This document shows, piece by piece, positions 1,227-12,587 of a stretch of 64,000 nt of DNA; the stretch's first letter is position 1; the number at the start of each line of letters is the position of its first letter. Below the pieces are notes generated by a model. The model did no database searches, was not told where the DNA came from, and was given only the letters and a program-made list of their open reading frames with translations. Source of the DNA: Escherichia coli (GTDB lineage Bacteria > Pseudomonadota > Gammaproteobacteria > Enterobacterales > Enterobacteriaceae); NCBI RefSeq assembly GCF_003334785.1, contig NZ_QOWV01000002.1. One strand, given 5' to 3'. Position numbers and translations under genes: made by a program.

Positions 1227-3470
1227 ATGAAACTGAATGCAACTTATATAAAAATACGTGATAAATGGTGGGGGCTTCCGCTGTTCCTGCCTTCTTTAAT
1301 CTTGCCCATTTTCGCCCACATTAATACTTTCGCGCATATTTCTTCCGGTGAGGTTTTTCTCTTTTATCTGCCTCTGGCACTGATGATCAGCATGATGATG
1401 TTTTTCAGCTGGGCGGCATTGCCAGGGATCGCCTTAGGGATTTTTGTCCGCAAATATGCAGAGCTGGGTTTTTACGAAACGCTATCATTAACGGCTAATT
1501 TTATTATCATTATCATTCTCTGTTGGGGCGGTTACAGGGTCTTTACTCCCCGGCGTAACAACGTTTCACATGGTGATACCCGTTTAATTTCCCAGCGTAT
1601 ATTCTGGCAGATTGTGTTTCCTGCAACGCTGTTTCTGATACTTTTCCAGTTTGCTGCATTTGTAGGATTACTGGCGAGCAGAGAAAATCTGGTCGGTGTC
1701 ATGCCTTTTAACCTCGGGACTTTAATCAATTATCAGGCCTTACTGGTGGGTAATCTGATCGGTGTCCCGCTGTGCTACTTCATCATTCGGGTAGTGCGAA
1801 ATCCATTTTATTTACGTAGCTATTATTCGCAATTAAAACAGCAGGTTGATGCCAAAGTCACCAAAAAAGAGTCCGCGCTCTGGCTACTGGCATTAGGTGC
1901 TTTATTGTTGCTGTTATGCATGCCGTTAAATGAAAAAAGCACAATTTTTAGCACCAATTATACCTTGTCATTATTGCTGCCCCTGATGATGTGGGGAGCG
2001 ATGCGCTATGGTTATAAGCTGATTTCGCTGCTCTGGGCGGTCGTGTTGATGATCAGCATCCACAGCTATCAAAATTACATTCCCATTTATCTTGGCTATA
2101 CCACGCAGCTGACCATAACCTCCTCCAGTTATCTGGTATTCTCTTTTATTGTCAATTATATGGCTGTACTGGCAACCCGTCAGAGAGCGGTAGTCAGACG
2201 CATTCAGCGGCTTGCGTATGTGGACCCGGTGGTTCATCTGCCAAATGTTCGCGCCCTGAATCGCGCGTTGCGTGATGCCCCCTGGTCTGCGCTTTGTTAT
2301 TTACGCATCCCTGGCATGGAAATGCTGGTTAAGAACTATGGCATCATGCTGCGGATTCAATACAAGCAAAAACTTTCTCACTGGCTGTCACCCTTGCTGG
2401 AACCGGGTGAAGATGTTTATCAGCTTTCGGGTAACGATCTCGCGCTGCGACTGAATACAGAATCGCACCAGGAGCGCATTACCGCACTGGATAGCCATCT
2501 CAAGCAATTTCGTTTCTTTTGGGATGGCATGCCGATGCAACCGCAGATTGGCGTCAGTTACTGCTATGTGCGCTCGCCAGTGAATCATATCTACCTGCTG
2601 CTGGGAGAGCTAAATACGGTCGCCGAACTTTCCATCGTGACCAACGCCCCGGAAAATATGCAGCGTCGCGGGGCAATGTATTTGCAACGCGAATTGAAAG
2701 ATAAAGTCGCGATGATGAATCGACTACAGCAGGCGCTGGAACACAACCATTTTTTCCTGATGGCCCAGCCGATTACCGGTATGCGTGGTGATGTTTACCA
2801 TGAAATTCTTCTGCGCATGAAAGGTGAGAATGATGAACTGATCAGCCCCGATAGCTTCTTGCCGGTCGCGCACGAATTTGGTTTATCGTCGAGTATCGAC
2901 ATGTGGGTCATTGAGCATACGCTGCAATTTATGGCTGAAAACAGAGCGAAGATGCCCGCTCACCGTTTTGCTATTAATCTGTCTCCAACCTCGGTATGTC
3001 AGGCTCGTTTTCCTGTTGAAGTCAGTCAGTTGCTGGCTAAATATCAGATTGAAGCGTGGCAACTTATTTTTGAAGTCACCGAAAGTAATGCTCTGACCAA
3101 TGTTAAGCAGGCGCAAATCACCTTGCAGCATCTTCAGGAATTAGGCTGCCAGATTGCGATTGATGATTTCGGCACCGGCTACGCCAGCTATGCGCGGCTT
3201 AAAAATGTGAATGCCGATCTGCTTAAAATTGACGGCAGTTTTATCCGCAATATTGTGTCAAATAGTCTGGATTATCAGATAGTGGCATCGATTTGCCACC
3301 TGGCGCGAATGAAGAAAATGCTGGTAGTGGCAGAGTACGTTGAAAACGAAGAGATCCGCGAGGCGGTGCTCTCTTTGGGGATCGATTATATGCAGGGTTA
3401 TCTTATTGGTAAGCCGCAGCCGTTAATTGATACGCTGAATGAAATCGAACCCATTCGCGAAAGTGCCTGA
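1227..3470 (+). CDS. pdeF: Cyclic-di-GMP phosphodiesterase PdeF (YfgF): N-terminal multi-pass membrane (MASE1-like) region, degenerate GGDEF, C-terminal EAL domain
   Basis: 747 aa ORF; hydrophobic N-terminal third; EAL-domain motifs (EVTES, DDFGTGYAS, KIDGSFI) in the C-terminal part. Confidence 0.9.
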   Translation: MKLNATYIKIRDKWWGLPLFLPSLILPIFAHINTFAHISSGEVFLFYLPLALMISMMMFFSWAALPGIALGIFVRKYAELGFYETLSLTANFIIIIILCWGGYRVFTPRRNNVSHGDTRLISQRIFWQIVFPATLFLILFQFAAFVGLLASRENLVGVMPFNLGTLINYQALLVGNLIGVPLCYFIIRVVRNPFYLRSYYSQLKQQVDAKVTKKESALWLLALGALLLLLCMPLNEKSTIFSTNYTLSLLLPLMMWGAMRYGYKLISLLWAVVLMISIHSYQNYIPIYLGYTTQLTITSSSYLVFSFIVNYMAVLATRQRAVVRRIQRLAYVDPVVHLPNVRALNRALRDAPWSALCYLRIPGMEMLVKNYGIMLRIQYKQKLSHWLSPLLEPGEDVYQLSGNDLALRLNTESHQERITALDSHLKQFRFFWDGMPMQPQIGVSYCYVRSPVNHIYLLLGELNTVAELSIVTNAPENMQRRGAMYLQRELKDKVAMMNRLQQALEHNHFFLMAQPITGMRGDVYHEILLRMKGENDELISPDSFLPVAHEFGLSSSIDMWVIEHTLQFMAENRAKMPAHRFAINLSPTSVCQARFPVEVSQLLAKYQIEAWQLIFEVTESNALTNVKQAQITLQHLQELGCQIAIDDFGTGYASYARLKNVNADLLKIDGSFIRNIVSNSLDYQIVASICHLARMKKMLVVAEYVENEEIREAVLSLGIDYMQGYLIGKPQPLIDTLNEIEPIRESA

Positions 3471-10004: not shown

Positions 10005-11294
10005 ATGACGCGCCGTGCTATCGGGGTGAGTGAAAGACCGCCACTTTTACAGACAATCCCGCTTAGTTTGCAACATTTGTTCGCCATGTTTGGTGCAACC
10101 GTCCTGGTGCCCGTCTTATTTCATATTAACCCGGCGACTGTACTGTTATTTAACGGTATTGGAACGCTGCTGTATCTCTTCATCTGTAAAGGGAAAATTC
10201 CGGCTTATCTTGGTTCCAGCTTTGCCTTTATTTCACCGGTATTGTTACTGTTGCCGTTAGGGTATGAAGTCGCGCTGGGCGGCTTTATTATGTGCGGCGT
10301 GCTGTTCTGCCTGGTTTCTTTTATCGTGAAGAAAGCGGGGACCGGCTGGCTGGACGTGCTGTTTCCACCTGCGGCAATGGGCGCAATCGTTGCCGTCATC
10401 GGTCTGGAGCTGGCGGGCGTAGCTGCCGGTATGGCGGGTTTACTCCCGGCTGAAGGGCAAACGCCAGACTCCAAAACCATCATCATCTCTATTACCACCC
10501 TGGCGGTCACGGTTTTAGGTTCCGTGCTGTTTCGTGGTTTCCTGGCAATTATCCCGATTTTAATTGGCGTGCTGGTGGGGTACGCGCTCTCTTTCGCAAT
10601 GGGAATTGTCGATACCACGCCGATTATTAATGCTCACTGGTTTGCGCTGCCAACCCTCTATACGCCGCGCTTCGAGTGGTTTGCCATTCTGACTATTCTG
10701 CCAGCGGCGTTAGTGGTTATTGCCGAACACGTAGGGCACCTGGTAGTAACGGCTAATATCGTCAAAAAAGATCTGCTGCGCGATCCAGGTCTGCACCGTT
10801 CGATGTTTGCTAATGGCTTGTCGACCGTGATTTCCGGCTTCTTTGGCTCTACGCCAAATACTACTTACGGAGAAAACATTGGCGTGATGGCGATCACCCG
10901 TGTTTACAGTACCTGGGTTATCGGCGGGGCGGCGATTTTCGCTATCCTGCTTTCCTGCGTCGGTAAACTGGCTGCCGCTATCCAGATGATCCCATTGCCG
11001 GTGATGGGCGGCGTTTCGCTGCTGCTTTATGGTGTCATCGGTGCTTCCGGTATTCGTGTTTTGATCGAATCGAAAGTGGATTACAACAAAGCACAGAACC
11101 TGATCCTGACTTCCGTGATTTTGATCATCGGCGTCAGTGGCGCGAAGGTAAACATCGGCGCGGCGGAGTTAAAAGGTATGGCGCTGGCGACCATCGTCGG
11201 TATCGGCTTAAGTTTGATCTTCAAACTGATCAGTGTGCTGCGCCCTGAAGAAGTGGTGCTGGACGCAGAAGACGCGGATATAACAGACAAATAA
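10005..11294 (+). CDS. uraA: Uracil permease (NCS2/NAT family)
   Basis: 429 aa from [36 protein letters not shown]; multi-pass membrane protein; the ORF track is extended by 14 codons. Confidence 0.92.
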
Positions 11295-11388
11295 TGTACC
11301 GACCGGGCAGTGTTGCTGCCCGGTTCAAACATCATGGGATTCTGTGGTAAACTTCTCGCGATTTTGTGAAATCCTGGTTGAGGTATCT

Positions 11389-12090
11389 CTGAACACACCG
11401 GCACAGCTCTCTTTGCCACTTTATCTTCCTGACGACGAAACCTTTGCAAGTTTCTGGCCGGGGGATAACTCCTCTTTACTGGCCGCGCTGCAAAACGTGC
11501 TGCGTCAGGAACATAGCGGTTACATCTATCTCTGGGCACGCGAAGGCGCGGGGCGCAGCCATCTGCTGCACGCGGCTTGCGCGGAATTGTCGCTGCGTGG
11601 CGATGCGGTGGGCTATGTCCCGCTGGATAAACGCACCTGGTTTGTTCCGGAAGTGCTCGACGGTATGGAGCATTTGTCGCTGGTCTGTATCGACAACATT
11701 GAGTGTATTGCAGGCGATGAGTTGTGGGAGATGGCGATTTTCGATCTCTACAATCGAATTCTGGAATCGGGCAAAACACGGTTGTTGATCACCGGCGATC
11801 GTCCACCGCGGCAGTTGAATCTGGGATTACCGGATCTCGCGTCGCGACTCGACTGGGGGCAGATCTACAAATTGCAGCCACTTTCTGATGAAGATAAGTT
11901 GCAGGCGCTACAGTTACGCGCGCGTTTGCGTGGTTTTGAACTGCCGGAAGATGTGGGGCGTTTCTTGCTGAAGCGGCTCGACAGAGAAATGCGCACGCTA
12001 TTTATGACGTTGGATCAGTTGGATCGTGCGTCGATTACCGCGCAACGTAAGCTGACCATTCCGTTTGTGAAAGAAATTCTGAAGTTGTAG
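11389..12090 (+). CDS. hda: DnaA-inactivating AAA+ protein Hda (regulatory inactivation of DnaA)
   Basis: DnaA-like AAA+ core ([27 protein letters not shown]); the mature N-terminus ...[18 protein letters not shown] aligns with an in-frame CTG (233 aa); the ORF-track GTG at 11344 would give 248 aa. Confidence 0.85.
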
Positions 12091-12104
12091 ATAAGGTGTT
12101 TATT

Positions 12105-12201
12105 GTCGGATGCGGCGCGAACGCCTTATCCGAACTACGCGAAGTTAATCCATAGTATTCGTAGGCCGGATAAGACGTGGCAAGCGTCGCATCCGGCAAT
12201 G
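12105..12201. repeat. REP/BIME: two inverted REP units between convergent hda and yfgD
   Basis: gtcGGATGCGGCGcgaacGCCTTATCCGaa and GCCGGATAAGacgtggcaagCGTCGCATCCGGCA; the canonical E. coli REP palindrome. Confidence 0.8.
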
Positions 12202-12227
12202 TGCTTCAACTAGCGATGGAGCACATC

Positions 12228-12587
12228 TTAACCCACGATTTCCAGTACCTGCTCCGGTGGACGACCAATCCGCGCTTTGCCATTCGCGACCACAATCGGG
12301 CGCTCCATCAGCTTCGGATTATCCACCATTGCCTGAATCAGCGCCTCTTCGCTAAGCGAACTGTCAGCCAGGTTCAGTTCTTTATAAAGATCCTCTTTCT
12401 GGCGCATCAATTCACGGGCGCTATTCATCCCCAGTATTTTCAGCAAATCGCGCAGCGTTGCCGCATCGGCGGGTGTCTCAAGGTAGAGCACCACTTCTGG
12501 CTCCACGCCGTTTTCTTTCAGCAGGTTCAGCGTTTCCCGGCTCTTTGAACAGCGTGGGTTATGGTAGATTTTTACCTGTTTGGTCAT
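12228..12587 (-). CDS. yfgD: ArsC/Spx-family small thiol protein YfgD
   Basis: 119 aa; N-terminal CxxS motif (HNPRCSKSRETL) typical of the ArsC family. Confidence 0.85.
   Translation of the reverse strand: MTKQVKIYHNPRCSKSRETLNLLKENGVEPEVVLYLETPADAATLRDLLKILGMNSARELMRQKEDLYKELNLADSSLSEEALIQAMVDNPKLMERPIVVANGKARIGRPPEQVLEIVG

Follow-up and report, generated by a model that had tools for sequence, protein, structure and literature searches.

The hda gene of the Escherichia coli sequence analyzed here (64,000 nucleotides, referred to below as the window) is translated from a CUG codon. We are highly confident that it is transcribed from an extended −10 promoter starting at G11360, that a GAGGT sequence guides initiation to the CUG at 11389-11391, that the product is the 233-aa form of Hda and that the CUG would act as a brake on its level. 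The CTG start of hda is already known and is part of standard annotation, and there is nothing new in the start-codon call itself: the published start, its annotation, the transcription start and the conservation are all on record or directly observed. What we add is small and refines the known result without changing it. The start codon, the Shine-Dalgarno spacing and the extended −10 element are invariant across six Enterobacterales families, the GTG that formerly served as the annotated start falls within the promoter and precedes the mapped transcription start, and the nearest sampled outgroups use GTG. The features discussed below are collected in Table 1.

Table 1. Features of the hda start region and coding sequence in the window.
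Feature	Position	Strand	Basis
Hairpin after uraA, CCGGGCAG-tgttg-CTGCCCGG	11303-11323	+	Sequence reading
Possible −35 element TTCAAA, 18 bp upstream of the −10	11324-11329	+	Inferred; 4/6 match to TTGACA
3′ end of the upp-uraA transcript	11327	+	SMRT-Cappable-seq end at NC_000913.3 2618838 (−), b2498 and b2497
GTG, start of the longest ORF and of the former 248-aa annotation, not the functional start	11344-11346	+	ORF list, alignment, mapped transcription start
Extended −10 element TG-g-TAAACT of hda	11345-11353	+	Conservation; hexamer ends 7 nt before the transcription start
Transcription start of the monocistronic hda mRNA (G)	11360	+	SMRT-Cappable-seq; position invariant in the alignment
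5′ untranslated leader, 29 nt	11360-11388	+	Interval between the mapped transcription start and the CTG
Shine-Dalgarno sequence GAGGT	11380-11384	+	Invariant; 4 nt to the CTG in 88/88
CTG initiation codon of hda	11389-11391	+	RefSeq CDS start, literature, conservation
hda coding sequence, 233 aa and TAG stop, DnaA inactivator Hda	11389-12090	+	NCBIfam profiles, PDB match
Clamp-binding motif QLSLPL, residues 6-11 in the numbering of the CTG form	11404-11421	+	Sequence; PMC5397184

The hda reading frame and its annotated start

The longest open reading frame of hda in the ORF list extends from 11344 to 12090 on the plus strand, opens at a GTG and encodes 248 aa, as the initial annotation of this DNA had stated. 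Read from that GTG, the frame is GTG GTA AAC TTC TCG CGA TTT TGT GAA ATC CTG GTT GAG GTA TCT CTG. The CTG that ends this series occupies 11389-11391 and is followed by AAC ACA CCG GCA CAG CTC TCT TTG CCA (NTPAQLSLP); the conserved N-terminus of Hda thus begins directly after an in-frame CTG, where the initial annotation had placed it. The GTG form of the protein is 15 residues longer than the CTG form (248 versus 233 aa). This count had been given correctly, whereas the letters quoted for the added residues were shifted by one, omitting the residue encoded by the GTG and including the leucine encoded by the CTG.

The RefSeq start of hda was checked in three strains, JKHS016, NC101 and K-12 MG1655. 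In JKHS016, which is 100% identical to the window over 11200-12150, the annotated locus (1690..2391) corresponds to 11389..12090 of the window and encodes 233 aa from the CTG. The gene is likewise annotated from the CTG, with 233 aa, in NC101, and K-12 MG1655 hda (2618075..2618776, NP_416991.2) also encodes 233 aa starting at the CTG. A 951-nt query around hda found matches in all 5,426 complete E. coli genomes, the JKHS016 match being at 100%. The K-12 gene (b2496) is the same gene with the same start codon, and a comparison of 201 bases around that codon showed no difference between K-12 and the window.

The initial annotation noted that a CUG start had been reported for hda, which is correct: it was published in 2008. 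EcoGene 3.0 cites Su'etsugu et al. 2008 (J Biol Chem 283:36118) for the CTG start of hda and, in its account of that paper, for the native N-terminus of Hda at the CUG. EcoGene 3.0 lists hda as the first proven CTG start in E. coli and yfjD as the second confirmed one in E. coli K-12. Like hda, yfjD is a chromosomal gene; its CTG was predicted from conservation and inspection of the ribosome binding site and was confirmed by start-codon mutagenesis, but the gene is unrelated to hda. CTG starts in E. coli are thus rare (two or three cases) but accepted.

Structural data agree with the shorter protein. In the crystal structure of Hda with the clamp, the clamp motif is numbered 6-QLSLPL-11, which is the numbering of the CTG form (PMC5397184), and PDB chain 5X06_E consists of a 20-residue tag followed by MNTPAQ..., the 233-aa form. 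Models of 248, 241 and 235 aa nevertheless persist because automatic gene callers cannot choose CTG. These models put extra residues before the clamp-binding motif, and herein lies the value of the correct start for annotation.

The identity of the protein is clear from profile searches, in which Hda scored 470.9 bits against NCBIfam NF005982 (cut-off, 268) and 279.2 bits against TIGR03420 (cut-off, 194.8). The β-clamp-binding motif QL[SP]LPL is present near the N-terminus as QLSLPL, and the Box VII arginine finger of the AAA+ domain is present as well, residue 153 being R; a role for Arg153 in Hda is stated in PMC5397184. The protein aligned with all 233 Hda residues of 5X06_E except for Q69L. 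This substitution is also the only difference from K-12 MG1655 Hda (AELSLRG in the window versus AELSQRG; codon 69 at 11593-11595), and the variant has a RefSeq entry of its own, WP_072005141.1.

Promoter, transcription start and leader of hda

A SMRT-Cappable-seq data set (Yan et al. 2018, PMC6131387, Supplementary Data 2) contains a monocistronic hda transcript with its start site at NC_000913.3 2618805 on the reverse strand (the row reads 'b2496 2618805 reverse same b2496'). Since the window matches K-12 at every one of the 201 nt compared, this position corresponds to G11360 of the window. In an alignment of 81 Enterobacteriaceae sequences, positions 11345-46, 11348-49 and 11351-53 were invariant, and all 88 Enterobacterales sequences had TGnTAnnnT at 42-48 nt 5′ of the CTG. 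The invariant intergenic positions comprise TG-n-TA-n-ACT (11345-11353), G11360, GAGGT (11380-11384) and the CTG, and in its composition the TG-n-TA-n-ACT block is a textbook extended −10 element. The TTC of the possible −35 element (11324-11326) was also invariant in the 81 Enterobacteriaceae sequences.

A consensus promoter and terminator scan of 11150-11500 called nothing. The scan missed the hda promoter because its two hexamers match the consensus at 8 of 12 positions, the threshold being 9, and the promoter depends on the extended TG; the hairpin after uraA was not called because it has no T-run. Instead of the scan, conservation and SMRT-Cappable-seq support both the promoter and the hairpin. 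A text search of the literature found no paper using the phrase 'hda promoter'. We also considered a DnaA box at TGTGGTAAA (11343-11351), and with it control of hda by DnaA, and rejected it, the conserved T at position 4 being missing. No match to TTWTNCACA was found near hda, and the TGTGGTAAA element is therefore read as an extended −10 only.

The position of the promoter bears directly on the former 248-aa gene model, which takes GTG 11344 as the start of Hda and reads the CTG as an ordinary leucine codon inside the gene. That GTG is a canonical start codon at the head of the longest ORF, and automatic gene calling has yielded the 248-aa form in thousands of cases (cluster P0002 has 3510 member sequences). 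However, it sits in the −10 element, its T and G being the TG dinucleotide of the extended −10, and transcription of hda begins 16 nt downstream of it, at G11360. The hda-specific mRNA therefore does not contain the GTG.

The same SMRT-Cappable-seq data (PMC6131387) also list a read-through RNA covering b2498, b2497 and b2496 (upp-uraA-hda), with its start site at 2620909. This RNA, a minority species, contains GTG 11344, and one could imagine two isoforms of Hda: the short mRNA would yield most of the protein from the CUG, and read-through transcripts would yield a little of the 248-aa form from the GTG. A weak GGGA does lie 4 nt upstream of the GTG. On the other hand, upp-uraA transcripts mostly end at 11327, we found no protein evidence for a 248-aa isoform, and even Escherichia and Salmonella do not conserve the extension, so that no selected function is apparent. 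We therefore regard a two-isoform arrangement as very unlikely, although a trace of the 248-aa form from the read-through upp-uraA-hda transcript is possible.

The leader and early coding region (11360-11440) folded no better than shuffled sequence (z = +1.25), indicating that the ribosome binding site is not buried in structure, and the leader matched no Rfam family. The 5 nt that follow GAGG give a near-optimal Shine-Dalgarno spacing.

Conservation of the CTG across Enterobacterales

For the comparison, 80 Enterobacteriaceae loci (93-99% protein identity) were taken from a scan of species-representative genomes, and seven genera of other Enterobacterales families (Yersinia, Erwinia, Hafnia, Proteus, Dickeya, Xenorhabdus and Serratia) were added. 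Together with the window this gave 88 sequences from six families, and 81 in the Enterobacteriaceae alignment. All 88 had a CTG at the homologous position, and in each of them GAGGT stood precisely 4 nt 5′ of it. Among the 37 conserved leucine columns (n=88), only that of the start CTG kept the same codon throughout; each of the remaining 36 showed 3-8 different codons, the commonest of which never exceeded 86%. In general, the codon was invariant in only 2 of 135 columns in which a (degenerate) amino acid was invariant. Codon invariance at the CTG thus indicates a constraint on the nucleotides, as an initiation codon should show; a leucine codon within the gene would instead be expected to vary as the other 36 columns do. 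Judged from the aligned sequences, the CTG pattern at the hda start is far beyond chance.

By contrast, the 15-codon extension required by the GTG start is not conserved. An in-frame GTG at −15 was kept in only 9 of the 88 sequences, 48 had no in-frame ATG, GTG or TTG between the upstream stop and the conserved N-terminus, and in 30 an in-frame stop occurred at most 7 codons upstream of the CTG. Indels or stops broke the frame in most sequences, including one genome labelled E. coli (L007). RefSeq and the literature also reject GTG 11344 as a start. We conclude that the 248-aa reading is refuted for practical purposes and assign it next to no probability. CUG initiation of hda, as proposed in the initial annotation, is supported by four independent lines: the RefSeq annotation, the literature together with the numbering of the structure, the comparative data and the mapped transcription start.

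Of 5,427 E. coli records, 5,411 were at least 99% identical over the 61-nt stretch that runs from the transcription start to codon 11 (11360-11420). To the position of the start within the wider family we applied a test based on 137 full-length (at least 220 aa) cluster representatives from a protein search. The Q of the clamp motif was found by pattern in 126 of the 137, and in 122 of these 126 the called start preceded it by 1-13 residues, most often by 3; the corresponding offset is 5 in the CTG form versus 20 in the GTG form.

A second stretch of unusual constancy follows the start codon. CCGGC (11398-11402; codons 4-5, CCG GCA) was invariant in the 81 Enterobacteriaceae sequences, and the CCG codon, including its third position, was invariant in 88 of 88, making it the only other codon-invariant column of hda. 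A requirement of the translation initiation region immediately 3′ of the weak start may underlie this invariance.

The sequence around the CTG also offers a different route to the same codon, in which ribosomes would reach the CUG by termination and reinitiation from a tiny upstream ORF ending at the overlapping UGA (CUGA). The UGA in CTGA is indeed invariant, 75 of the 88 sequences have an ATG, GTG or TTG in the frame of this ORF within 45 nt, and in E. coli the ORF would start at GTG 11366 (GTG AAA TCC TGG TTG AGG TAT CTC TGA). However, the UGA is forced because the CTG is followed by an Asn codon, and most of the 75 upstream starts are probably accounted for by the TTG inside the conserved gTTGAGGT (judged by eye), a Shine-Dalgarno context in which the TTG has no ribosome binding site of its own. 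The remaining 13 sequences have no start at all in this frame, and the invariant GAGGT at ideal spacing already accounts for start selection. Reinitiation at the CUGA was therefore rejected, and we consider it exceedingly improbable.

The CUG start as a proposed brake on Hda synthesis

Taken together, direct initiation at the CUG remains the preferred reading, and it can be set out as follows. The hda mRNA is made from the conserved extended −10 promoter TGnTAAACT, starting at G11360. The 30S subunit binds GAGGT (11380-11384) and initiates with fMet-tRNA at the near-cognate CUG (11389-11391), and the product is a 233-aa Hda with the clamp-binding motif almost at its N-terminus. The upstream GTG 11344 is a part of the promoter and not a start codon.

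Too little Hda leads to over-initiation of replication, and elevated Hda is harmful; the cell contains about 50 Hda monomers. The AUU start of infC, which encodes IF3, is a non-canonical start codon that IF3 discriminates against and that limits a dosage-sensitive protein. It is also the sensor of an autoregulatory loop, in which IF3 represses its own AUU start. By analogy, hda may resemble infC in having a non-canonical start that limits a dosage-sensitive protein; no feedback of the infC type is known for hda.

Hecht et al. reported that CUG initiates at 1-2% of the AUG rate, with values of 0.02-3% across constructs. At such a rate the codon would act as a built-in brake, holding Hda at about 50 molecules per cell, and a fixed brake on a dosage-sensitive regulator is plausible where so weak a start codon follows a strong ribosome binding site. 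The suggestion in the initial annotation that a rare CUG start fits a low abundance of Hda is consistent with the number of monomers per cell, with the harm caused by excess Hda and with the low efficiency of CUG. We infer that the invariance of the CUG, which was never TTG, GTG or ATG in the 88 sequences, reflects selection for low expression. The hda CUG would then be a textbook case of a near-cognate start that holds a dosage-sensitive replication regulator at very low copy number.

It could also be argued that the CUG is kept as a regulatory sensor: a start codon that IF3 discriminates against and through which Hda synthesis would follow the state of the translation apparatus, much as with the AUU of infC. 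This idea arises because the CUG was never replaced in 88 sequences, although a single change converts CTG to TTG and would create a canonical start, and because the Shine-Dalgarno spacing is fixed. We consider a sensor function unlikely; if it were true, Hda, the level of DnaA-ATP and the initiation of replication would be linked to growth rate, cold shock or stress. The conservation is compatible both with a fixed low set-point and with a regulated one.

Start-site variation beyond E. coli

In ten sequences from Salmonella arizonae and Citrobacter spp. (L004, L005 and L008-L015), the leader is longer by a single G some 24 nt before the CTG, and this brings an ATG (gattttATGaaatcc) into the hda frame 8 codons 5′ of the CTG. 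This ATG has no Shine-Dalgarno sequence and would lie about 6 nt from the 5′ end of the mRNA if the transcription start is homologous. Going by the reading frame, a 241-aa isoform of Hda is possible in these organisms.

In the families other than Enterobacteriaceae (L083-L089), the start region reads GAGGTG-nTT-CTG, with a GTG in frame two codons before the CTG. The GTG within GAGGTG was chosen as the start in many 235-aa database entries (MLLNTPAQ or VLLNTPAQ), whereas some NCBI records give 233-aa forms instead. The 80 Enterobacteriaceae loci have GTA or GTC at that codon, never GTG.

Hda orthologues outside Enterobacterales belong to the same family, and their clamp motif is likewise close to the N-terminus. 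In the three nearest outgroup hda loci retrieved (L092, L093 and L094; identity about 48-63%), the called start was a canonical GTG, not ATG, in contrast to the CTG of Enterobacterales. In this sample, with an outgroup of three, a CTG start was apparent only in Enterobacterales, and the GTG starts of the same three loci hint that hda may have been initiated weakly, or at a codon other than AUG, before the CTG arose.

Gene context

In the window, upp, uraA and hda lie on the plus strand and arsC and bepA on the minus strand, in the conserved enterobacterial order upp-uraA-hda-arsC(yfgD)-bepA. In Yersinia and Dickeya, too, uraA is upstream and arsC downstream of hda. The gene ends in a TAG stop codon (12088-12090). 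Mukai et al. 2010 counted hda among only seven essential E. coli ORFs that end in UAG, and it was the ORF that needed recoding to UAA before RF1 could be deleted. The gene thus combines a rare start codon, CTG, with TAG, the rarest of the stop codons. Palindromic repeats (gccggatg..., cggataag...) in the hda-arsC spacer (12098-12232) gave sub-threshold Rfam naRNA4 hits on both strands and look like ordinary REP elements.
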